From: an uncultured Gammaproteobacteria bacterium
GTDB taxonomy: Bacteria; Pseudomonadota; Gammaproteobacteria; Steroidobacterales; MnTg04
Length of the DNA stretch: 64,000 bases
Reading direction: 5' to 3'
Assembly: GCA_964568075.1 (NCBI GenBank)
Contig: CAZMOM010000004.1
Coordinates: 89,227-153,226 of the forward strand
In this document: one piece after another, positions 31,077 to 61,725 of the stretch
Layout: every line of letters starts with the position of its first letter
Position numbering within the stretch: the first letter of the stretch is position 1
Program-made: the position numbers and the translations under genes
The notes under the pieces: model-generated
Told to the model about the DNA's origin: nothing
Database searches by the model: none
Seen by the model: only the letters and a program-made list of their open reading frames with translations

Positions 31077-31179
31077 CCGGGGCAGGACACCCAAATGCCG
31101 CGGAGCCCAGGGACGGGCGAGAGCGGCGCCGGGCAGGACACCCAAATGCCGCGGAGCCCAGGGACGGGCGAGAGCGGCG
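31077..31179. repeat. two tandem copies of a ~52-bp unit in the parA-parB intergenic region
   Basis: cc(g)gggcaggacacccaaatgccgcggagcccagggacgggcgagagcggcg occurs at 31077-31128 and again at 31129-31179. The copies are identical apart from one extra g in the first. Confidence 0.9.
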
Positions 31180-49005: not shown

Positions 49006-50841
<1,836 letters not shown>

Positions 50842-50922: not shown

Positions 50923-50968
50923 ATTTAACGGTGTTATATTGCTCCATCTTTAGAATTAACTGTTAGGT
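50923..50968 (+). repeat. short attC-like or attI-like remnant preceding the first cassette
   Basis: atttaac (50923-29) ... gttaggt (50962-68). At 46 bp it is shorter than typical attC sites. Confidence 0.3.
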
Positions 50969-50980
50969 GGTGCAAAGACT

Positions 50981-51547
50981 GTGCGCAAGATTCTGGTCGC
51001 AATAATTCTTTCAGTCCCGTTCTTAATATCTGCGTCTGGCGAGGAACTAGACAAGTGGGAAGCTGCCGATCGGGAAACCGTACGACTTCCGCCTAGCGAT
51101 TTTCCGAACCTGCCAAAAAGCGTGAGAAACGATCTCGACGCACGGGGTTGTACGATTCCACAGGTATATTGCTGCAACCGCCAGCCGCACAATGTAATTA
51201 GCGGGCACTTCAAGAAATCCGGTCAGGTTGATTGGGCGGTCCTTTGTTCAATCGACCGCCAGTCAACTCTACTCGTCTATTGGGGCGGATCTGCTGAGAC
51301 CGTTTCGGAGCTATCAACTTCGGCCGACCAGCACTGGTTGCAGGGTATCGGCGGCGACAACGTTGGATTCGACCACGGTATCTCAACCGTTGATGCAAAG
51401 TACATAACGGTTCATGCTCGCTCGTACGGTGGCGAAGTACCGGCGGTACTCGATCATGAAGGGATCGATGACGGGTACATGGGAAAGGCTTCCATCGTCC
51501 GTTACTGGTTTGAAGGCGAGTGGCTTATATTGCGGGGAGCGGATTGA
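50981..51547 (+). CDS. cassette 1: secreted protein, unknown function
   Basis: 188 aa with a GTG start and the signal peptide MRKILVAIILSVPFLISASG. No recognised domain. Confidence 0.65.
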   Translation: MRKILVAIILSVPFLISASGEELDKWEAADRETVRLPPSDFPNLPKSVRNDLDARGCTIPQVYCCNRQPHNVISGHFKKSGQVDWAVLCSIDRQSTLLVYWGGSAETVSELSTSADQHWLQGIGGDNVGFDHGISTVDAKYITVHARSYGGEVPAVLDHEGIDDGYMGKASIVRYWFEGEWLILRGAD

Positions 51548-51557
51548 TCACAACACC

Positions 51558-51657
51558 ACCTAACCAGGCGCTGAACTTGACACCAAGCATCTGTCACGCA
51601 GCTTGCATACGCAACCTACGCGCCAGATACTTGGCGCAAGTTAGCTAAACGTTAGGT
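51558..51657 (+). repeat. integron attC site 1
   Basis: ACCTAAC (51558-64) and its perfect complement GTTAGGT (51651-57). The inner arms gctgaacttg..ccaag / cttggcgcaagttagc pair with bulges and are separated from the core boxes by about 5 unpaired nt. Confidence 0.8.
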
Positions 51658-51772
51658 GGCATAGTCGACATTGTGCCGTTCCCGTGTCCGCTTCCGACCC
51701 AAAGCGAACCTTCGACATTCAATGTCACGATTGCCTAAGTTATAAAAAGTACGAGTTAACGAACAATCCGAC

Positions 51773-52273
51773 ATGGAACCTAAATACATCGCAAGAATAC
51801 TATTACTAATTGTTTTCGCGACGATTCTAATCGGCTGTGAACGACGTCCAGAGATAATCTTGGATCGAATGCTTCAAGCGGAAAATCTTGAGGAATTTAA
51901 TAGGTACGCAGAACGGGCTCGAGCACTTGAACAAGATGGCATTCCCTTATTATTGGCAGTACTCGAGGACAGTCTGACGACCCGCTACAGCCTGCTTAGT
52001 TACGGTAAGACAAATACCTGCCTTATGCATCTGCACGAACTGGCATCTGAGGGGATTTACACGGTTGAGGAAGTTCCGACGTTGCTTCGGGTGATCAACG
52101 AGCAGATCGCGATTATGGATACGCTCGTCACGGCGGAGATTCTTGAAATGATTACCGGAGTTGATGTTGGTTATGATGAGGAGTTCGCTACTAGCTACGC
52201 GCCCAGCGATAATGCAAAGCGAGAAAGAATGATTACCGATTGGGAACGCTGGTATGAAGCAGCGTCAAAATAG
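51773..52273 (+). CDS. cassette 2: putative lipoprotein, unknown function
   Basis: 166 aa with the lipobox-like LIGC after a hydrophobic N-terminus. No recognised domain. Confidence 0.65.
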   Translation: MEPKYIARILLLIVFATILIGCERRPEIILDRMLQAENLEEFNRYAERARALEQDGIPLLLAVLEDSLTTRYSLLSYGKTNTCLMHLHELASEGIYTVEEVPTLLRVINEQIAIMDTLVTAEILEMITGVDVGYDEEFATSYAPSDNAKRERMITDWERWYEAASK

Positions 52274-52295
52274 CTCAATGGTCTCGCGATATGCC

Positions 52296-52398
52296 ATCTA
52301 ACCAGGCGCTGCACTGGCCGCCTTTCCGTATCTGTCACGCCGCTTGCATACGCAATAGCCGCGCCAGATACTGGGCGCAAGTGAGCTAAACGTTAGAA
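52296..52398 (+). repeat. integron attC site 2
   Basis: ATCTAAC (52296-302) ... GTTAGAA (52392-98). The internal sequence is nearly identical to that of attC 1 and attC 4. Confidence 0.75.
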
Positions 52399-52409
52399 GG
52401 CGCAAGCAC

Positions 52410-52865
52410 ATGCCAATAGAATTCGACAATGTAGATCACTGCGAGGACTTTATTCGTCTCAACGAGCAATGGATCTCTGAGCACTTCTCAATCGAGGAGT
52501 CCGATCGCAAGTTGGCCGCCAATCCATTTAGGATCGTCTCCGACGGAGGTCATATCATAAGCCTGGTTGAGAATGGTTGTGTCATTGGTGTATGCGCACT
52601 GTTCAAGATCAGTGAGGATCGCTATGAACTCGCGCGAATGGCCGTAGAGCCCAGCGAGAGAGGCAAGGGTTACGGCGAGGCACTGATCACCGCGGCCCTC
52701 AGTCGTGCGCGCGACAAAGGAGCCTCAAACATATACCTCAACTCAAATACGGTGCTTGCTCCTGCTATCGCTCTTTATCGCAAGCATGGGTTTAAAACAG
52801 TGTCGGAAGGACCTCATGCGGAGTACGCTCGCTGCAACATCGTGATGGAATTGCGCTGGAAGTGA
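52410..52865 (+). CDS. cassette 3: GNAT family N-acetyltransferase
   Basis: 151 aa with RMAVEPSERGKGYGEALI (acetyl-CoA binding Q/RxxGxG/A) and ALYRKHGF. Confidence 0.8.
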   Translation: MPIEFDNVDHCEDFIRLNEQWISEHFSIEESDRKLAANPFRIVSDGGHIISLVENGCVIGVCALFKISEDRYELARMAVEPSERGKGYGEALITAALSRARDKGASNIYLNSNTVLAPAIALYRKHGFKTVSEGPHAEYARCNIVMELRWK

Positions 52866-52899
52866 CGCTCCAAAAGACGGCGAGCGCGGGAGTGGCGCC

Positions 52900-52972
52900 T
52901 TCTAACAATACTTTCAACACGGACGCACAACACGCTGCGCGTGTTGTGCGCCGGTTAACGTGAACGTTAGAT
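52900..52972 (+). repeat. integron attC site 3 (short, different sequence class)
   Basis: ttctaac (52900-06) ... GTTAGAT (52966-72), with the central palindrome gcgcacaacacgc/gcgtgttgtgcgc. Confidence 0.6.
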
Positions 52973-53012
52973 GGCGAGTCGCCAGCGTCCGCAGGTACTT
53001 GGGAGCACAATA

Positions 53013-53447
53013 ATGTTTGCCGAATCGCTCAAAGTTCGGATATTGCTTTTTGCCACAGTAATCGCTGCCCCAACTTGGGCGCAGGAAATACCGCCTGACA
53101 TATTTTCAATTCGGCCCAATGATCTGACCTGGCAAGAAAGTACTGTTGGCTGGGACAAGGCTGAGCTTTACGGTGACATGACCAGTAGCGAATATTCTGT
53201 GGTTCGGTTACGAATGCCGCCGAATTGGGAGGCGCCTGTACACAAGCATGTTCGGACGAAGCTTGAAGTGGTGAGAGTATTGAAGGGAATCCTATTCCTT
53301 GCATTCGGTGAAGATTCAAATCGGGAATCCGCAGTGGAGTATGGTCCTGAGTCCTTCATTGTCTATGCGGAGGGTACCTCAGTTCGAATGTTTACCGGCG
53401 ATGAAGAAGTGTTGGTCGAAATCACTCATCTACCGCGCGCTGAATGA
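53013..53447 (+). CDS. cassette 4: secreted cupin-like protein
   Basis: The signal peptide MFAESLKVRILLFATVIAAPTWA follows the RBS gggag. The ORF-track start at 52971 lies inside the attC core. Domain assignment is weak. Confidence 0.6.
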   Translation: MFAESLKVRILLFATVIAAPTWAQEIPPDIFSIRPNDLTWQESTVGWDKAELYGDMTSSEYSVVRLRMPPNWEAPVHKHVRTKLEVVRVLKGILFLAFGEDSNRESAVEYGPESFIVYAEGTSVRMFTGDEEVLVEITHLPRAE

Positions 53448-53478
53448 CTCGTCGGGATTGCACGCGTGGGTAATCGCC

Positions 53479-53578
53479 ATCTAACCAGTCGCTGCACTTG
53501 CCCCTGGCTATCTATCACCCCTCTTGCATACGCAACAGCCGCGCCAGATACTGGGCGCAAGTGAGCTAAACGTTAGGT
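53479..53578 (+). repeat. integron attC site 4
   Basis: ATCTAAC (53479-85) ... GTTAGGT (53572-78). It belongs to the same sequence class as attC 1 and attC 2. Confidence 0.8.
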
Positions 53579-53584
53579 GGCTTC

Positions 53585-54001
53585 ATGCAGGTCGTTAGAT
53601 TGCTCATGAAACTGATATTTGGAACATTTGCAGCAGCACTAGTCGCGGTTGTCTTGTTGGTCTATATCGCTAAACCGGAGGTACCTGAAGTAAGCGGTAT
53701 ACCGGACTATGATGCTGGGGCCGGCTGTCTCCGTGAAATCCCAAGACAATACGATCCAGAATTTTTCACTTTTAAAGGATGGGTCAAGGCTTTGTACGCT
53801 TACCACGCTGACAAGTGGGGGATAGAAATGAGCCCAGGACTACTCAGCTACTACAAGAGATACTTTCAGTTGCAACTGGATGTAGATTGTTACGTCCGGT
53901 CGGCTAATGATACAGGCCTCAATTTAACGCTGTCGCCAACGGAATTTAAAGCAGTTTATAACGCGATTGCAGAGAACCATGGACTTGAAAGAATTCGCTG
54001 A
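53585..54001 (+). CDS. cassette 5: N-terminally anchored protein, unknown function
   Basis: 138 aa with one N-terminal TM helix. No recognised domain. Confidence 0.6.
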   Translation: MQVVRLLMKLIFGTFAAALVAVVLLVYIAKPEVPEVSGIPDYDAGAGCLREIPRQYDPEFFTFKGWVKALYAYHADKWGIEMSPGLLSYYKRYFQLQLDVDCYVRSANDTGLNLTLSPTEFKAVYNAIAENHGLERIR

Positions 54002-54007
54002 TACGCA

Positions 54008-54082
54008 ATCTAACCATTACCTCCAGCCGGCCGCCTCCGTCGCTGGCGCTCCTCCGGCATCGGCTGAGGCAAGCCGTTAGGC
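54008..54082 (+). repeat. integron attC site 5 (short class)
   Basis: ATCTAAC (54008-14) ... the canonical GTTAGGC (54076-82), with GC-rich paired arms. Confidence 0.7.
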
Positions 54083-54095
54083 GTCAGTTAAGGAT

Positions 54096-54521
54096 GTGGT
54101 CATGACCATTCGCGGTAGCTGCCTTTGTGGCGGCGTTCAATACGAGATTCTTGGCAAGCTACATGACGCCGGGAATTGCCACTGTTCGATGTGCCGTCGA
54201 ACGCACGGTGCTGCGTTCGGTACCTATGCGCGTGTTGATGCAGACGAGTTCCGGTGGCTGTCTGGCGAGGATCTCATTACCGCTTACGAATCCTCGCCTG
54301 GCGGTCATCGCTGTTTTTGTCGTCAATGCGGCTCGCCTTTGGGGGCTGTGGCGGAAGGTGGAAAATTGAGTTGGGTTACGCTGGGCACTGTTACAGGTGA
54401 TCCGGGGTTGCGTCCCGAAACCCATATTTTCGTGGGCTCGAAAGCGCCCTGGTATGAGATAACAGACCATCTCCCCCAATTTGATGAATGGCCACCGGGC
54501 TTCGGACCTGAATCATTCTGA
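54096..54521 (+). CDS. cassette 6: GFA (glutathione-dependent formaldehyde-activating / CENP-V) family protein
   Basis: Zinc-Cys motifs GSCLCGGVQY, CHCSMCRR.HGA and CRQCGSPL. Confidence 0.85.
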   Translation: MVMTIRGSCLCGGVQYEILGKLHDAGNCHCSMCRRTHGAAFGTYARVDADEFRWLSGEDLITAYESSPGGHRCFCRQCGSPLGAVAEGGKLSWVTLGTVTGDPGLRPETHIFVGSKAPWYEITDHLPQFDEWPPGFGPESF

Positions 54522-54527
54522 TCTGCC

Positions 54528-54649
54528 GCCCAACAAATCGCGGAACTTGCCGCCGGGCAGCATCTGTCACAGTTCTTGCAGGATTATTGATATTTGCATT
54601 CGTAACAACCGTACCAGATACTTGGCGCAAGTAAGCTTAGACGTTAGGC
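54528..54649 (+). repeat. integron attC site 6
   Basis: GCCCAAC (54528-34) ... GTTAGGC (54643-49). Its right half (ccagatacttggcgcaagtaagct) is shared with attC 1, 2 and 4. Confidence 0.7.
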
Positions 54650-54664
54650 GCCAACGAGACGACG

Positions 54665-55102
54665 ATGCGAACTTCTGAGAAATGGGACCAAATGACCGAC
54701 GCCGATTGGACTTCATTCGCGGCCTCTTGGTTAGAAGAACTTCACAGTCCTATCGAACCAACTGATTCTGATATCGGCCAATCGGTAGTTTTTATGAACT
54801 TTACGGCAACCCCAGCGCAACAGTGGAAATTCATTGTTGCAGCAGTTGCATGCGCCAAGTCCGATGAGGAACTTGGGCATCTCGCCGTGGGGCCAATGGA
54901 GCATTTGCTCGGGCACCACGGAGAGAAAATTATCGCCCAAGTTGAGGATCGCTCAAAAAGTGATTCTGCTTTTGCGAGGATGTTGACGGGAGTGTGGAAA
55001 TATATGATTTCTGATGAAGTATGGAAGCGCATCCAGGCCATTCAGGCCGGCGTCAAAGACCCTTTGGACCCCCCGGTTGGTAATGACGCAAGTGGTGCCT
55101 GA
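54665..55102 (+). CDS. cassette 7: cytoplasmic protein, unknown function
   Basis: 145-aa ORF with no recognised domain. Confidence 0.6.
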   Translation: MRTSEKWDQMTDADWTSFAASWLEELHSPIEPTDSDIGQSVVFMNFTATPAQQWKFIVAAVACAKSDEELGHLAVGPMEHLLGHHGEKIIAQVEDRSKSDSAFARMLTGVWKYMISDEVWKRIQAIQAGVKDPLDPPVGNDASGA

Positions 55103-55200
55103 CAAGGCGCTGCACTGGCCGCCGGTCATGATTGTCGCGGGTCTTGCATTTAGAGCAACACAAGCGCCAATCACCGGCGCCAGTGGGCTAAGACGTAGGC
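55097..55200 (+). repeat. degenerate attC-like site 7
   Basis: gcctgac (55097-103) ... cgtaggc (55194-200). Both core sites deviate from consensus. Confidence 0.4.
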
Positions 55201-55219
55201 AGCCCGGAGTGGTTCATCC

Positions 55220-55618
55220 ATGAGTCAAGATATTGGAATCGTAGCAATCTACGCAGCTCTCAATGGCTTGCTAATTCTCGGGCTCTCATACAACGTCGGA
55301 CGGCATCGCGCACGAACTGATTCGTTAACGCCGGGAGCCATGGGGGACGAGATACTGATTCGTGCTATTCGAGCTCATGGCAATGCAACCGAGTACATTC
55401 CACTGGCAATCGTTATGCTGCTCATTCTGGCGCTGCTGTCAGCCCCTTCCTCTCTGATCCACGGCCTCGGCGCTGGATTCACTTTCGGACGATTGGCTCA
55501 GGCTTTTGGTATAACTCGTACTAAACACCCGAACGCGATCCGATTCACTGGCAACCTATGCACTGGCTTGGTTTACCTCATCGGTTCAATCGCATGCATC
55601 TACTACGGAGTGGCTTAG
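55220..55618 (+). CDS. cassette 8: MAPEG family membrane protein
   Basis: 132 aa with 4 TM helices and the motif RAHGNATEYIPLAIV. It is a second MAPEG gene in the window (see 45775..46164). Confidence 0.75.
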   Translation: MSQDIGIVAIYAALNGLLILGLSYNVGRHRARTDSLTPGAMGDEILIRAIRAHGNATEYIPLAIVMLLILALLSAPSSLIHGLGAGFTFGRLAQAFGITRTKHPNAIRFTGNLCTGLVYLIGSIACIYYGVA

Positions 55619-55631
55619 TGGCCACACGGCT

Positions 55632-55730
55632 GCCTAACCACTCGCTCCAGCGGAGCAAGCGAAGCGTCACGCATTTTTCTTTCGCAAAAGTCGCGCCTTT
55701 TCACTGCGCCGCTGAGCTCAAACGTTATAT
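55632..55730 (+). repeat. integron attC-like site 8
   Basis: GCCTAAC (55632-38) ... gttatat (55724-30). The right core site is imperfect. Confidence 0.5.
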
Positions 55731-55755
55731 GTAATACAGCAGGAGAGGTGCCGAA

Positions 55756-56103
55756 ATGGCGTCTGATTTAGATTTTGTCGAATTCGTAGTCGATCAAATG
55801 GAAAATGCCGGTGTTATTGCGTACAGAAAAATGTTTGGAGAATATGCGGTTTATTGTGAAGGCAAAGTCGTAGCGCTTATATGCGATAATCAGTTATTTA
55901 TTAAACCGACGAAAGCTGGTAAATCCTATATTGGTAATGTAGTAGAGGCGCCTCCCTATCCCGGAGCCAAACCGTCCTTTCTCATAGAGGAGCAAATCGA
56001 AGACAAAGATTGGATTAGCAACTTGGTGAGACTGACGGAAAGAGAGCTCCCGGAGCCCAAACCGAAGAAAAAACCGAAGCGCAAACGTGGAAAAAACACA
56101 TAG
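55756..56103 (+). CDS. cassette 9: TfoX N-terminal domain protein
   Basis: 115 aa. The FVEFVVDQMENAG.I.YRKMFGEYAVYC.GK.VALICDNQLF.K pattern is typical of the TfoX_N domain. It has a Lys-rich tail. Confidence 0.75.
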   Translation: MASDLDFVEFVVDQMENAGVIAYRKMFGEYAVYCEGKVVALICDNQLFIKPTKAGKSYIGNVVEAPPYPGAKPSFLIEEQIEDKDWISNLVRLTERELPEPKPKKKPKRKRGKNT

Positions 56104-56230
56104 CAAGTCATTCAAGTACGCAGCCTGGCGGCTGGCGGACGCCTGCAGCGCAGGCGCCGCTTAATTCAAGCGTTATGTGGCCGTTTTTTCTGGATTCTGA
56201 GGCGCTCCAAGAAATATAGCGCATCGGCAT

Positions 56231-56593
56231 TTAATCGGGTCCGCCCTCTTTTTGTGCATCGCTTTCTTTTTTTTCTCCGGGCCCCGATGAGACAGACAAA
56301 CTGGATTTCAGTTTGACGATCACGAGCAATAAAAAGGTAATGGCCCAAAAGAAAAGATAAAGCCAACCACCTTTACCAACAAAAACATTACTGACAAAAA
56401 TTACAATAAGTATCAAACTGAGAACGAGCAACAGATACTGTATAACACTGGCTGTCCTGCTTTGAACCAGCAACGCACCACAATTGGAACATTCGTGGCC
56501 TTTCACCGCGTTCAAAAAAATTCGATGCAGCAACGGCAACCGAAAACCGCACGAAGGACATCTTGATCGATAACTATTTTCCGATAAACTCAT
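56231..56593 (-). CDS. putative Rhs immunity protein: zinc-ribbon + two/three TM helices
   Basis: ATG 56593 overlaps the Rhs TGA as ATGA. Two CxxC pairs (CPSCGF, CSNCGA) are followed by strongly hydrophobic segments. The ORF-track start at GTG 56602 is also possible. Confidence 0.6.
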   Translation of the reverse strand: MSLSENSYRSRCPSCGFRLPLLHRIFLNAVKGHECSNCGALLVQSRTASVIQYLLLVLSLILIVIFVSNVFVGKGGWLYLFFWAITFLLLVIVKLKSSLSVSSGPGEKKESDAQKEGGPD

Positions 56594-59500
56594 TCGCCGC
56601 ACTCATCCTCACAATCGTTCCCCGCAGCAAGTATTCTGGCTGCGATAGCTCCGGCGATACCGCCTGTCGCGCCACCAACAGCACCGGTCACAGGGTCAGT
56701 ACCGATGGCGCCGCCTAACGCCCCGCTCACTGCGGCTGCTGTAGCGCCATCACCCAGAAGATCGCCTGCGACGGCACCAACCGCCGCACCTGCAGCAGAG
56801 CGCGCTTTACCGCCAGGACCAGAATTCGTTGCAACAGCCGCCATTCCTACTCCACCTGCAGCACCAACTTGCTGAATGACTATTGCCGACGCCATACCAA
56901 CGCCCGCTCCCCGAACCGCGCCAGCCAGTCCCAATGCAATAGCTCCAGGGATTCCTCCTACCACAGCACCGGTAATTGCTCCCGACACCAAACCGCCGAA
57001 GCCTCCGCCAATGCTCGCTGCAATCGCATTAATCTGGACTTGTGTTAAACAATACAGTCCATAAGGGTCGAAATAAACAATGGGACTGTTTTTGGCGTAT
57101 ACAAAAAGATTGATAGCAGCTGATTGACCTAACGGGTCGGTAGACACGTATCGACCAGTTCCTGGATCATAAAAACGAAAGTAGTTGTAATGCAACCCGG
57201 ACTCGGCATCGAAATACTGACCCGGAAACCTCAGGTTGAGTGTGACATTTGATCCATCTCCATCCGGATCGCCATCAGCGGCGACCCCCCCAAACCCATC
57301 ACCATCCCATCGCCAGACGATTTTCCCCGTATCATCGGTGCCACTGCGCACGGTCGCCAGGTGGTCGCTGTGCAAATAAGTCAACCTCTCCTCGGTCGTC
57401 GTCGTGACCTTGCCCTTGCCATTGCCATTGCCATTGCCATTGCCCTTGCCATTGCCATTGCCATTGCCCTTGCCCTTGCCATTGCCATTGCCATTGCCCT
57501 TGCCATTCCTTGTTGTCGTCGTGACCGGGCCGATTTGCGCTACCGGCCTGTTGCCAAGCCACAGATAGCTGGTCTCCGCCACTCCGCCGTCGGTAGTCTC
57601 GAGAATCAGATTGCCGCCAAGATCATAGTGATAGATCGTGGATCTCCCGTTCGCAATTTTTTTCACCCGCTGACCGAGCGCATTGTAGGTGTACACGCCA
57701 ACTTCTGTAATCGTCGTCTTTGGCTTACCCCTGTACTTGGTCGTGACAGCGGCTGACACAGACTGCAGGCGTCCGGAATCGTTGTAGGCCAGGTCCATCC
57801 CGCGCAAGGATGTGGTGTTGCCGGCGGCATCGAGAACCACGCTCTCACCGGCGATGGCGGTGAGCCGGTTCGAGAGGCTCAGGTAGTCATACGTACCACT
57901 GCTATCGCTGGTTCGATTGCCGTTGGCATCATAGGTAAATGCATCTCCGGCATAATTTCCCTGGTCGGTCTCCAGTCGATTCAGCGCATCATAGGTAAAC
58001 GACTGGTTCATGGCCGGATCGACAAGGTCTGTAATGCCCAGGATGTTCCCGACCGGGTCCAGGCCGTACGACTTATCCAGCAAGCCATTCATGGTGATAC
58101 CGGTTACCCGGTACGCCTGATCATAGGCATAATCCATCGACACGCCGTTGGCGTAGGTCATGGATGTGACTGGCCCAAATGGCTCATAGGCCGCGTTGCT
58201 AATAATCGCTGTCGTAACGCTGTCGACCGAGGTGTTGACCTGGGTCAGCTGTCCGGCGGCATCCCTGACATAGCTGACAATACGCCCGTCCGGGTAGGTT
58301 ATATCGGTGATATTGCCGGCACCGTCATACAGATAGCTGGTCGTATAACTGACGCCGTCGATGACTTTCACATCGCTTACGACGTCACCAAATGTGTTGT
58401 AGCCATAGGATGTTATGCCGCTTTGATCCGCGATCGCTGCTAATCTTGCAATGCCACTCGTTCCCGTGTCGAACGTATAGGTGACATTTTCGCTGGCGTC
58501 GGGATACTGTGTCTTCGTTACGCGATTCAGCACATCGTAACTGTAGGTGGTCGTGACGCCTCTGGCATCTGTCACGCCGACCACATTGCCTGCGATGTCG
58601 TGCGTGTAGAATATTTGTCCTCGATCGGGGCTGCTTTCTGACAACAGGTTGCCCAGGTCGTCATACTCGTAGGTTGTCAGGGCACCGTTTGGCGCATGAA
58701 CGCTGGTGAGATTATCGGTGACGTCGTAGCCATAGACGGTTGACCCAGACAAAGCATCGAGTGTGTCGGTCAATCGATTGAGAGGATCGTAGTTGTTCGT
58801 CGTCGCGTTCAGGTTGGCATCGGTCTCTGAATCCAGATTACCGAGCGCATCAAACAACAGGTCCGTAATGGAACTGCCATTGTTGATCGTATCGATGTTG
58901 TCCCAGATGTCATAAGTTTTCGTCAGCGTCCGCTTGAGCACATTGCTCGCGTCGTAAATCTTCTCCTCTGCCTGATTGCCTTTGAGGTCGTAGGTGTAAT
59001 CAATGTGATTGCCTAGCTCGTCGGTTACGGACAACAGGTTATGCGCCGCGTCGTAGGTATATGTCAGCGTTACACCAGCAGGCGACGTGTTGGTCTTAAG
59101 CTGCCCGGCGTTGTCGTAAGTCATCAACATCGTGCGTGCCGTACCACCGCTCGGCGACTGGCTGATGGTGGTCACCCGTCCCCTCAGATCGTAAATATAG
59201 GTAGTGACGAGGCCATTCGGATCGGTTGACTGCGTCAACCGACCTGCTGCGTCATAACTGTCATAAGTGGTGACGTGGCCCAATGCGTTGGTAACCGACA
59301 GCAGTTGACCGCATTCGGCGCCTGTCGCGCAATTGTAATAAGAAAATTTAGTTGTGTCGGAATCGTCCGTACGCGGACCGTCGACCGATGTAATCTGACC
59401 ATTGGTGTTGTACCGAAACGATATGCTTCGGCTCACGGCCGTGCCGTCTGGCCGATAACCATCGATCGTCACACTCTCGGGTAACTGCGCCGCGTTATAG

Positions 59501-61266
59501 GCCGTGATGACTTGCCGATCGTTGCCGGTGAATACGCTCGGCGATGTCACCTGCGCCAGGCGGCTCGTGTGGTTGTCGAGATACAGATAGCTCGTCAGCC
59601 TTTCTTCGGCCGTACCCACGGCTTCTGTTTTGCTGATCTTATGGTAGGTGTCGTAGGTGTAGCTGGTCTGAACGCCACGTTCATTGGTGGTACTGAGAAT
59701 TCGCCGTCTTTGGTCGCCGAAGGGATGAGCGTAAGCAATGCTTGTTGACTGCCCGCCAAATGCTGTGCCATTGACCCGTTTCGCCCAGCTAGTATCCGTG
59801 GTGAAAGAATAGGTCTTGATGTTCCCGGCGGCGTCAGTAACCAGCGTGTCGCCATTCGCTTCGTAGCTCAACGTGAGTCGTTCGTAACCACCCACATGTT
59901 CGGTCGAAATCGCACGACCGACCAGGTCGTACGCAAACATCGCAAATCGATCGCCATTTTCATCCGTAATCCCCGTCAGGTGGTTGGCGTATTTGATGTC
60001 CTCGTAGTGGTAGGTACGGACACTGCCGTCTTCGTGAGCGACGGTCGTAAGATTATTTCTCGAGTCATAGGCGTACTGGATAAGCTGTCCGTCCGGTGTT
60101 TGCACGCTTTCCAGGCGACCCAGGAAAAAGCCACTGGAATCGTAGTTAAACTTCAGCTGATGCCCGAACGGCCCGGTGACCGTATCGACCTGACCGGTGT
60201 TGTAGGTAATGGTCGTCGAACGACCCGCTTCGTCAACCAGCTCAACCAGCGCACCGGTTGCGTCATAGATTTCTCTCGCTCCGGTCTTTTGGTAAACGAC
60301 GAACTGATCAGCCTCTTTCTTGATGATCAGATCAACATTTTCATAAGCGATATAGGTATCGGTTGCGGAGTATCTCAGCGTATCCTGATGACCATCCCCG
60401 CGGATCAGTCCACTGGGATTTCCGCCATAAACAGTGATCCTGGCCTGGTAGTTATGCCGCCAGCCCACGCCGAGACCGGTCGATTTTTCTGAATTAAATG
60501 AATGATAAGTCCGTTCCAGCGATGGACCCGGACCCGTGTAATCCGATTCTTTCTGTAATTTGTCTCCGGAACCAACATCGCAGGGATTACCGACAGAGCA
60601 CGATTGAATCAGCGGCCGACCGGTTACTTTTCCGATATCGGGAAGAAAGCAATGAGGAATTGCCAGCCTGGACCAAAAAGGAGACTCGCATGCTATCGGG
60701 CGCCGTCTCGACCCACCGTCGTATGCTGCCATCGGAATGCAAGTTTCCAACGTACTGGACCATCCCCAGGTATCAACGTCGTAGTTACGATCCTGGTCCT
60801 CGACAATTTCGTACCACCAGCCATCCCATGGCGTATACCAATCTCCATCCGGCGTAACTGCCACAGGACTGCCAGCACAGTTGGCAGGCAACTGACTTTC
60901 ATATTTCACTTTCAGAAACGAAACATACTCTGCCTCGGTCGCATACAACTCGACATCAAAAAAATGCGTACTGTATTCCCACACTCCTATAACGGGATCT
61001 TTGGGCTCCGCGACAAATTTAAACCAAACGTGCTGGTCCGTGGTAATCCTGTCTACACCCGTTTCCTCGGTCAGGTATTCACCGTTATTGGTTACAACTT
61101 CCATTCTTGCGACGGCTTCGGCCTTGCTTTGAAAGGTCAAGAATTCTGTATCATTCGCCGCCTTCCATTCCCAGGGCTCATAGGCCGACACCTGATAGGA
61201 GACAATCAAGCTAAGAATTAAGGCAATCAACAACATCGACATTTTTTCTGGCGCAGGTAACTTCAT
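56590..61266 (-). CDS. Rhs/YD-repeat toxin with Sec signal peptide and glycine-zipper-like C-terminal domain
   Basis: Many YD repeats (YxYDxxGN/RL..), an N-terminal plug-like GNPCDVGSGDK, a DHL motif (YLHSDHLATV) and the core end RFYDPGTGRYVSTDP...YFDPYGL, followed by a 154-aa Gly/Ala-rich tail. ATG 61266 (MKLPAPEK.., RBS ggag) is preferred. The ORF track starts at 61314. Confidence 0.92.
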   Translation of the reverse strand: MKLPAPEKMSMLLIALILSLIVSYQVSAYEPWEWKAANDTEFLTFQSKAEAVARMEVVTNNGEYLTEETGVDRITTDQHVWFKFVAEPKDPVIGVWEYSTHFFDVELYATEAEYVSFLKVKYESQLPANCAGSPVAVTPDGDWYTPWDGWWYEIVEDQDRNYDVDTWGWSSTLETCIPMAAYDGGSRRRPIACESPFWSRLAIPHCFLPDIGKVTGRPLIQSCSVGNPCDVGSGDKLQKESDYTGPGPSLERTYHSFNSEKSTGLGVGWRHNYQARITVYGGNPSGLIRGDGHQDTLRYSATDTYIAYENVDLIIKKEADQFVVYQKTGAREIYDATGALVELVDEAGRSTTITYNTGQVDTVTGPFGHQLKFNYDSSGFFLGRLESVQTPDGQLIQYAYDSRNNLTTVAHEDGSVRTYHYEDIKYANHLTGITDENGDRFAMFAYDLVGRAISTEHVGGYERLTLSYEANGDTLVTDAAGNIKTYSFTTDTSWAKRVNGTAFGGQSTSIAYAHPFGDQRRRILSTTNERGVQTSYTYDTYHKISKTEAVGTAEERLTSYLYLDNHTSRLAQVTSPSVFTGNDRQVITAYNAAQLPESVTIDGYRPDGTAVSRSISFRYNTNGQITSVDGPRTDDSDTTKFSYYNCATGAECGQLLSVTNALGHVTTYDSYDAAGRLTQSTDPNGLVTTYIYDLRGRVTTISQSPSGGTARTMLMTYDNAGQLKTNTSPAGVTLTYTYDAAHNLLSVTDELGNHIDYTYDLKGNQAEEKIYDASNVLKRTLTKTYDIWDNIDTINNGSSITDLLFDALGNLDSETDANLNATTNNYDPLNRLTDTLDALSGSTVYGYDVTDNLTSVHAPNGALTTYEYDDLGNLLSESSPDRGQIFYTHDIAGNVVGVTDARGVTTTYSYDVLNRVTKTQYPDASENVTYTFDTGTSGIARLAAIADQSGITSYGYNTFGDVVSDVKVIDGVSYTTSYLYDGAGNITDITYPDGRIVSYVRDAAGQLTQVNTSVDSVTTAIISNAAYEPFGPVTSMTYANGVSMDYAYDQAYRVTGITMNGLLDKSYGLDPVGNILGITDLVDPAMNQSFTYDALNRLETDQGNYAGDAFTYDANGNRTSDSSGTYDYLSLSNRLTAIAGESVVLDAAGNTTSLRGMDLAYNDSGRLQSVSAAVTTKYRGKPKTTITEVGVYTYNALGQRVKKIANGRSTIYHYDLGGNLILETTDGGVAETSYLWLGNRPVAQIGPVTTTTRNGKGNGNGNGKGKGNGNGNGKGNGNGNGNGKGKVTTTTEERLTYLHSDHLATVRSGTDDTGKIVWRWDGDGFGGVAADGDPDGDGSNVTLNLRFPGQYFDAESGLHYNYFRFYDPGTGRYVSTDPLGQSAAINLFVYAKNSPIVYFDPYGLYCLTQVQINAIAASIGGGFGGLVSGAITGAVVGGIPGAIALGLAGAVRGAGVGMASAIVIQQVGAAGGVGMAAVATNSGPGGKARSAAGAAVGAVAGDLLGDGATAAAVSGALGGAIGTDPVTGAVGGATGGIAGAIAARILAAGNDCEDECGE
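57409..57510 (-). repeat. 17 tandem hexanucleotide units (ggcaat/ggcaag on the coding strand) encoding (GN/GK)17 inside the Rhs gene
   Basis: The plus strand reads cttgcc/attgcc repeated from 57409 to 57510. The peptide is RNGKGNGNGNGKGKGNGNGNGKGNGNGNGNGKGK, flanked by TTT and VTTTT. Confidence 0.95.
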
Positions 61267-61725
61267 AATGAAACAGCTCCGGACAATTCGTTTAGTACTG
61301 CCAATGGCTCGCATTCTTTAGTGAAAAACGCCGAGCAAGCATTGGCGACATGGTCCGCAGCATGTTTTCAGGTTCAGTACGTTCTTGCGAGATTCGAATC
61401 CGAACAGATCGATCAGAAATTCGATTAGCTGCTGATAAAGCAACCTACAGGTTGAAAATAGGTGCTGGTGTTAGGTTATGAAGATATTAATTGATTGGTT
61501 TTTGCTTGAATTCGAAATTGTATGTTTTTAAAACCTGGCGAATCGCAGATTCAGGTCGACAGAACTGGCTCGACTTTTTCGGCGTCCCTGCCATACCCAA
61601 TATCTGCTTCTGACAACCTTGGGATCGTGCTTTGGTGAAGTTGCATTTACCAGCCGGAAAACTGGCTCAAATAAGTAAATAACTTAACACCGGCACCATT
61701 TTCAAACTCGGCACCGTTGTCAAAC

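Follow-up and report, generated by a model that had tools for sequence, protein, structure and literature searches.

How does the wall of a protein cage come to carry a loop encoded by a simple sequence repeat, and is such a loop put to use or merely tolerated? The question is raised by a gene of the Rhs/YD-repeat family in a 64,000-nucleotide stretch (the window) of contig CAZMOM010000004.1, from an uncultured gammaproteobacterium. The gene (56590..61314, minus strand) encodes 1574 residues from its first ATG, or 1558 residues in the database call, which starts at M17, and it contains an in-frame microsatellite at 57409..57510 (minus strand; residues 1269–1302). We consider it probable, on structural and evolutionary grounds, that the microsatellite is a recent amplification, in place, of a turn in the Rhs shell, giving a tolerated loop at a hot spot for insertions.

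A recently amplified coding microsatellite

On the coding (minus) strand the 102-base tract reads AGG AAT followed by 16 units, each GGC AAG or GGC AAT, and encodes RN(GK/GN)16 (RNGKGNGNGNGKGKGNGNGNGKGNGNGNGNGKGK in the translation of the open reading frame (ORF), with flanks PVTTTT and VTTTTEERLTYLHSDHLATV). A first-pass annotation of this DNA had described seventeen 6-nt units here; its coordinates and sequence stand, but the units comprise 16 Gly-X and one Arg-Asn rather than 17 Gly-X. The Thr runs said to bracket the tract, and its position just ahead of the conserved DHL block (14 residues upstream of the DHL motif), are confirmed in the ORF translation. The units are arranged head to tail, are near-identical in DNA, have a length that is a multiple of three and lie inside an ORF, and the tract thus belongs among the coding simple sequence repeats. 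The encoded peptide has a net charge of +7 and contains 11 Asn-Gly dipeptides. Two further ORFs, at 57332..57562 (minus; WQWQ/GQGQ) and 57361..57756 (plus; AIAIAL), are, as had been proposed, spurious readings of the tract in other frames.

The variable residues of the units follow the order K N N N K / K N N N K / N N N N K / K, so that three 30-nt blocks are set apart by a single G-to-T change. Tandem Repeats Finder reports for the tract both a period of 6 (16.3 copies, 92% matches, score 161) and a period of 30 (3.2 copies, 97% matches, score 187). A 12-mer search gave 15 overlapping matches within the tract, against approximately 2 expected in the entire window, and none of 100 shuffles gave as many. 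Codon use inside the tract is uniform, with Gly encoded by GGC (16 of 16), Asn by AAT (11 of 11) and Lys by AAG (6 of 6); elsewhere in the Rhs gene these codons serve 36%, 47% and 41% of the respective residues. The uniform codons and the near-perfect 30-nt blocks therefore mark the tract as a young expansion, one in which units of DNA were recently amplified, rather than as a peptide kept by long-standing selection. Its latest expansion steps look like gains of 30-nt blocks as well as of 6-nt units. Further units, all multiples of three bases, can be gained or lost with a change in loop length but with the gene intact, and the earlier expectation that slippage in multiples of 6 would keep the frame holds for the 6-nt unit and the 30-nt block alike.

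The tract is bracketed by an imperfect direct repeat, GTCACGACGACAACA on its 5' side and GTCACGACGACGACC on its 3' side, both copies of which encode VTTTT. With the tract and one VTTTT copy removed, the hairpin sequence would read QIGPVTTTTEERLTYLHS, and these 18 residues are close to the spacing of 16–17 residues between the PVA and DHL anchors that is typical of the family.

Position of the tract in the Rhs fold

We modelled residues 236–1425 of the Rhs protein with AlphaFold2, using an alignment of 63 homologues (model numbering is ORF numbering minus 235). The shell model has a predicted local distance difference test score (pLDDT) of 88.9 and a predicted template modelling score (pTM) of 0.82, and in Foldseek it matches the solved Rhs cages 8qja, 8qjc, 8uxt, 7q97, 8cp6 and 7pq5 with E = 1e-53 to 1e-60.

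The model pairs RPVAQIGPVTTTTR with VTTTTEERLTYLHS in one long β-hairpin, each as a strand of 14 residues. The first strand (57511..57549, minus strand; residues 1256–1268, RPVAQIGPVTTTT; E1021-1034 in the model) ends in the 15 nt of GTCACGACGACAACA, and the second (57367..57408, minus strand; residues 1303–1316, VTTTTEERLTYLHS; E1068-1081 in the model) starts with GTCACGACGACGACC. The 33 residues that separate the strands are coil, with a pLDDT below 50 at model residues 1039–1063, and the flanking blocks have a pLDDT of 91–94 before the loop and 91 after it. No Pfam or NCBIfam match covers residues 1269–1302, and no secondary structure is predicted there. The tract is thus predicted to form a floppy, disordered, Gly-rich loop of 33–34 residues at the tip of the hairpin, in agreement with the flexible loop that had been proposed. 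The same three properties (no family match, a pLDDT below 50 and no predicted secondary structure) led us to reject the tract as a folded receptor-binding domain.

The alignable part of the Rhs-associated core begins at the YLHSDHLATV block (57349..57378, minus strand; residues 1313–1322), where the alignments to Tse5, Tse15, the S. bongori Rhs protein and RhsA all begin. The core is recognized by TIGR03696 at 73.6 bits against a cut-off of 32.5; the match starts at residue 1353, at profile position 12, and it starts late because the tract splits the core domain. Alignments map the tract site approximately 30 residues ahead of the C-terminal plugs of P. laumondii Rhs1 (strip 420–1262, plug 1263–1357; PMC8636562) and of Tse5 (plug 1092–1168; PMC10684867), which places it in the last ring of the barrel wall, approximately 30 residues ahead of the internal C-terminal plug. 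The site corresponds to the S. bongori loop 1312–1315, the length of which varies among solved Rhs cores (bioRxiv 10.1101/2024.02.26.582050).

A recurrent insertion site in homologues

Word-indexed searches returned proteins of up to approximately 1.75 times the query length, and the census therefore draws on 120 full-length homologues and approximately 340 fragments. The 120 best full-length homologues were placed on a profile, and inserts of at least 15 residues were tallied node by node. Profile node 1173, which is the tract site, carries inserts of 15–422 extra residues in 28 of the 120 proteins, and 22 of these 28 inserts span 94–422 residues. It is by far the richest site of the shell; the runners-up have inserts in 9 sequences (node 221, near ORF residue 298 and shortly after the DUF6531 plug; approximately 80 residues) and in 5 sequences (node 1033, near ORF residue 1118 and approximately 150 residues before the main site; 222–324 residues). 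By Pfam, the inserts at node 1173 include one to five copies of Golvesin_C, Laminin_G_3 (ConA-like) and the calcium-binding repeats Dockerin_1/TSP_3. Several others have no Pfam match, and a few are of low complexity (for example in P0086, P0032 and P0102).

The majority of homologues have a short linker at this site (median 16–17 residues). The first-pass annotation, by which canonical Rhs proteins carry no more than a short linker at this point, is thus right for approximately three quarters of the clade, but it missed that the position is the dominant insertion site. Because it is the dominant site, an insert just ahead of the DHL block is not anomalous in this clade. The loop is predicted to sit between the two strands of the shell hairpin, with the flanks intact, at the same profile node (1173) as the modules of the homologues.

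The homologues also bear on which way the tip points. The lumen of a solved Rhs cage measures approximately 28,000 cubic angstroms and has room for less than 25 kDa (PMC8636562). We infer that the hairpin tip faces outward, because folded modules of up to 420 residues, such as those of the homologues, cannot share the cage lumen. Mosquito SGS1, discussed below, offers a structural precedent. The loop, previously placed either on or in the cage, would by this argument lie on it.

The hairpin tip in relatives

An exhaustive HMMER search with residues 1216–1420, alone among the protein searches, recovered the closest relative, P0259, on contig L126 (JGI 3300037247, Ga0392330_0023234); its tip is short. 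The L126 and window DNAs are 99.4% identical over 1615 nt upstream of the tract (9 mismatches); 7 mismatches fall in the last 30 nt ahead of the tract, the next 280 nt are 84.6% identical, and the toxin regions have no similarity. The tip DNA of L126, ACC ACG ACG ACA GGT CGT GGC AAG AAA AAG GTC ACG ACA ACG, contains one GGC AAG against the sixteen units of the window, and the encoded tip is TKTTTT-GRGKKK-VTTTTT. A second relative, P0025 on L128, is 39% identical overall and has the tip ITTTT-GKGNNQ-VSTVT in quite different codons. In a third, P0280/P0396 on L127 (JGI 3300035130; P0280 is 53% identical over the aligned C-terminal segment), the tip is itself doubled, TTTT-GKGKNK-TTTT-GKGKNK-TTTTTTT, through an independent, perfect 30-nt tandem duplication of ACT GGC AAG GGG AAG AAC AAA ACC ACA ACG (P0280 residues 130–165). 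The preceding long hairpin of the L127 protein, VTTTAGKGKKKTTTTT, has a Thr-flanked GKGKKK tip; its counterpart in the window protein is VTTKYRGKPKTTIT.

A Thr-rich stalk with a Gly-Lys-Gly-Asn/Lys turn, present in 4 distinct proteins among the 224 with a parseable hairpin, is therefore ancestral in a small subclade. The short tips of the relatives, which are of this ancestral type, in turn argue that the window tract is a GKGN turn amplified in situ. Among the 464 proteins fetched there was no other (G[NK]) run of at least 4 units.

The unit itself is common. A scan of genome contigs found at least 5 GGCAAK units in at least 120 species genomes of diverse phyla, with arrays of up to 18 units. 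Many of these arrays lie in long ORFs, where they encode (GN)n or (GK)n, and several directly follow N-termini that resemble signal peptides (for example L012, from Siccibacter, and L079, among L002–L121). Among the matches listed, no ORF is Rhs-like and the source genome does not occur. GGCAAK is a common bacterial microsatellite unit, and the genome scan is uninformative on the Rhs locus.

Probable origin and tolerance of the loop

The account that we favour would start from a long, Thr-rich β-hairpin, part of the last wall ring of the Rhs cage, with Gly-Lys-Gly-Asn as the turn at its tip. Slippage during replication, or unequal exchange, acting first on 6-nt units and later on 30-nt blocks, would have turned this tip into the present tract, and the product would be a disordered, Gly-rich loop of 33–34 residues with a charge of +7. 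The cage would tolerate the loop because proteins of this clade regularly accommodate insertions and displayed modules at the tip of this hairpin, which would face outward. Most likely the loop is tolerated rather than required, and is at most a weakly beneficial cationic extension. The length of the tract is probably still unstable.

Several observations weigh against this account. Basic tips are found repeatedly in the subclade, and the three most cationic shell windows are concentrated in residues 1182–1302, both of which hint at function. The outward orientation of the tip is drawn from the inserted domains of homologues and from the cage volume. As to ongoing instability, no second copy of the tract allele was found, and the 90% protein cluster has a single member. 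The copy-number comparison consists of one GGC AAG in L126, within a C-terminal module of the closest relative that is approximately 15% diverged in DNA, and of the two-copy 30-nt duplication in L127. Scans of metagenome contigs with the back-translated downstream flank TTTEERLTYLHSDHLATV and upstream flank ETSYLWLGNRPV were empty, in a collection that evidently does not include L126. Finally, all three assemblies come from one sample, and a tract with a 30-nt period is open to miscounting.

Charge and a possible function of the loop

The main alternative assigns the loop a function. Together with the tip of the preceding long hairpin, H1 (57706..57744, minus strand; residues 1191–1203, TTKYRGKPKTTIT), which is Thr-flanked and has a net charge of +4, the loop would form a positive patch that contacts the anionic envelope polymers or membranes of target cells with low specificity. 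It would be a cationic tether, standing in for the lectin and dockerin modules that homologues carry at node 1173, and slippage would tune its reach.

The distribution of charge speaks for such a role. Without the insert, the shell has 81 Lys and Arg against 138 Asp and Glu (net −57), and onto this the insert and the H1 tip bring +7 and +4. Across the 1185-residue shell, the three 21-residue windows with the highest positive charge all fall in residues 1182–1302, and the H1 tip sits in the most cationic of them. Rhs cages are reported to be strongly negative both outside and inside (bioRxiv 10.1101/2024.02.26.582050). In addition, the Thr stalk and Gly/Lys tip are kept in four proteins of 39–90% identity that use different codons, the modules inserted at node 1173 in homologues are of binding type, and a protein with a Sec signal peptide, no PAAR or VgrG region and no type VI secretion system (T6SS) genes nearby would need its own route to its targets.

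Against the tether, hairpins across the family have a median net charge of −1 and reach +3 or more in 8% of cases, a six-residue tip suffices in the closest relative, and the perfect codon identity of the tract leaves no time for selection to have acted on the expanded form. On balance we regard the tether as possible but unlikely, and prefer a recent amplification that the cage tolerates.

A bolder version, which we hold to be more doubtful still, makes the Thr stalk and Gly-Lys tip a minimal targeting element of Sec-exported Rhs cages, which slippage would extend into a cationic tentacle of tunable length and which deamidation of Asn-Gly would equip with a built-in timer. Asn-Gly is the dipeptide sequence most prone to deamidation. 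If the timer were real, the 11 Asn-Gly dipeptides would, after export, progressively shift the loop from +7 towards a net negative charge; if the tentacle were, it would be a protein-level 'tuning knob' for contact with target surfaces in a polymorphic toxin.

Assembly support and switching

The tract can be compared in three assemblies, namely the window contig, a metagenome scaffold in the European Nucleotide Archive (ENA) and a Logan contig, which all derive from sample SAMN11268106 and run SRR8799000. The ENA scaffold encodes an identical 1558-residue protein. The Logan contig begins 29 nt inside the tract, is identical in sequence and joins at least 4.8 units to the 3' flank. Because two assemblies give the identical protein and the Logan contig contains the 3' junction, the existence of the tract is robust; its exact copy number rests on one read set.

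That the tract or its copy number is an assembly artefact is very improbable. Assemblers are known to miscount tandem repeats, which are a general cause of assembly errors (PMC6868369), and the shared sample, the break of the k-mer-based Logan contig within the tract and a join elsewhere in the window contig, where two ENA scaffolds meet in a repeated cassette of 589 nt, would all fit an artefact. Set against these are the agreement of two different assemblies on the protein, the independent junction in the Logan contig, the preservation of the frame within a 1574-residue ORF, a tract length (102 nt) below common read lengths and the homologous Gly-Lys tips at the same position in relatives.

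We give almost no credence to two further readings of the tract. One is a classical ON/OFF phase-variation switch, as the length and perfection of this simple sequence repeat, in a gene of interbacterial conflict, might suggest; the 6-nt unit and the 30-nt block exclude it, because slippage in such multiples of three cannot shift the frame. The other is an antisense or promoter element made of TTGCCA boxes (the plus-strand reading of the unit, which differs from the −35 consensus at one position). It is rejected by a consensus scan that found no promoter-like or terminator-like site in the tract, which lies deep within the coding region, and by regional counts equal to those in shuffles.

Comparison with known systems

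In-frame dipeptide repeats of variable length in exported bacterial proteins, and the decoration of YD shells by inserted domains, are both already known. The closest parallels of the first kind are the Ser-Asp (SD) repeats of the staphylococcal Clf/Sdr proteins and other in-frame variable-number tandem repeats of surface proteins (PMC3324548; PMC12817950). Like the tract, they have a short unit that is a multiple of three and is uniform in DNA, and they form a flexible, low-complexity segment of an exported protein whose length can change in frame. SD regions, however, are long stalks that connect folded domains to the cell wall and have documented variation from strain to strain, whereas the tract encodes a cationic loop of Gly-Lys and Gly-Asn, 34 residues long, that belongs to a cage domain and sits at the tip of a hairpin.

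Parallels of the second kind are provided by mosquito SGS1 (PMC9935623), in which a carbohydrate-binding module, a lectin carbohydrate-recognition domain and a wedge domain are inserted in the YD-repeat sequence and lie on the exterior of the shell, and by the teneurin NHL domain and the TcB β-propeller. In all of these, as in the window protein, extra sequence lies between strands of the YD shell and leaves the cage undisturbed. They differ in being folded domains; the tract has no family match, and disorder is predicted for it. The insertions of SGS1 also occupy other positions in the shell, its wedge domain ending approximately 150 residues before the core.

The solved T6SS Rhs cages (Tse5, 8cp6; RhsA, 7q97; Rhs1, 7pq5; S. 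bongori, 8qjc; Tse15, 8uxt) share with the window protein the fold, the DUF6531 plug, the core and the DPxGL motif, and the loop equivalent to the tract differs in length among them. Unlike these cages, the window protein carries a Sec-type signal peptide and lacks PAAR, VgrG and prePAAR regions, and repeats and long inserts are absent from the equivalent tip in all of the solved proteins.

The literature that we searched contained no microsatellite-encoded loop on an Rhs cage and no account of the hairpin ahead of the DHL block as a recurrent site of insertion or display in signal-peptide Rhs proteins. The tract is a clean natural case of how a low-complexity loop originates: in a gene family subject to diversifying pressure, a four-residue turn has been amplified in place where the fold accommodates it. 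The observation of the hot spot is more useful than the tract itself. In a large and mostly uncultured clade of signal-peptide Rhs proteins, the pre-DHL hairpin has repeatedly gained lectin-like, ConA-like and dockerin/TSP3 modules, and it is likely, judging from these sequences, to be a targeting or display site on their cages. This suggests a practical position for engineered insertions into Rhs containers. Should the length of the loop prove variable in reads or strains, it would be, with respect to the literature searched, the first reported in-frame, repeat-variable element on an Rhs cage.

The host gene, its cargo and its putative immunity gene

The host protein is laid out as a Sec-type signal peptide, an N-terminal domain, the DUF6531 plug (residues 242–310), the YD shell, the core and a toxin. 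Its N-terminus, MKLPAPEK-MSMLLIALILSLIV-SYQVSA/YE, resembles a Sec signal peptide. Pfam RHS_repeat matches 10 stretches (E = 2e-73) and NCBIfam YD_repeat_2x matches with E = 1.9e-48; these matches, the AlphaFold2 model and the Foldseek matches to solved cages uphold the original identification of the gene as Rhs. With YD repeats, a cage fold, a core that ends in DPxGL, and a variable, predicted toxin followed by a putative immunity gene, the protein has the features of an Rhs/YD-repeat polymorphic toxin and by its sequence is one. It contains no PAAR, VgrG or prePAAR region, and T6SS genes were not found nearby.

The DPYGL motif (57055..57069, minus strand; residues 1416–1420; for the definition of DPxGL, see PMC8636562) is the predicted site of C-terminal autoproteolysis and would mark the end of the cage. 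The C-terminal cargo domain that follows (56593..57054, minus strand; residues 1421–1574, 154 residues) is hydrophobic and rich in Gly and Ala, with many GxxxG-type spacings and a C-terminal CEDEC, and has no significant match in Pfam, NCBIfam or the sequences of the Protein Data Bank. Next to it lies a putative immunity gene (56231..56593, minus strand; 120 residues), the start of which overlaps the Rhs stop codon. Its product has a CxxC...CxxC zinc ribbon followed by transmembrane segments, and its similarity to DUF983 and TIGR04104 is weak and under the cut-offs. The cargo domain and the presumed immunity protein are compatible with a membrane-active toxin; to call the cargo a pore former would be a guess from its composition.

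Exchange of toxin modules at the locus

Comparison of L126 (1..4350) with the window (56291..59157) revealed near-identical shells that carry different C-terminal toxins after the same DPxGL motif. Downstream, L126 contains a further orphan module of core end, toxin and immunity gene, in which 2892–3353 opens with a remnant of the end of a core (...NPLNYFDEFGL) and 3376–3750 encodes a transmembrane protein. At 3911–4350 it has an orphan remnant of the end of the window toxin together with its immunity gene, 97.7% identical. This arrangement of shell, toxin and orphans argues that the locus is actively exchanging toxin modules, and has the appearance of classic Rhs C-terminal displacement. Like the displacement with orphan toxin-immunity modules described previously (bioRxiv 10.1101/2024.02.26.582050), it combines shell identity, a toxin swap and an orphan remnant. 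It differs in concerning the locus and not the repeat, which gives no sign of promoting recombination. The tract as a crossover point was rejected, since the break in identity with L126 lies 30–160 nt upstream of the tract and not inside it.

Contig context

The window contig equals ENA scaffold_1 up to position 52969 (100%) and ENA scaffold_265 from 52382 on (99.98%). These scaffolds overlap only in a 589-nt acetyltransferase cassette (52382..52969), and their continuations beyond it differ. Either the join reflects genuine recombination, or the assembly is chimeric across the repeated cassette; the join lies 5 kb from the Rhs tract, which it does not affect.

The region around the join (50957..56180) resembles an integron-type array of gene cassettes, with small plus-strand ORFs at 51773..56103. 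Its intergenic repeats of approximately 105 nt (51556–51660, 52297–52401 and 53477–53581, with shorter relatives near 54004, 54528, 55097, 55628 and 56154) have ..TCTAAC/CCTAAC at their start and GTTAGGT/GTTAGAA/GTTAGAT at their end, which match the inverse-core and core sites of attC. No integrase gene adjoins the array; the end of glmS is at 50841, and the last attC-like site of the array borders directly on the Rhs-immunity pair. Elsewhere in the window, a GC-rich unit of 51 nt is perfectly duplicated in tandem at 31080..31179 (2.0 copies, 100% match, Tandem Repeats Finder score 200).

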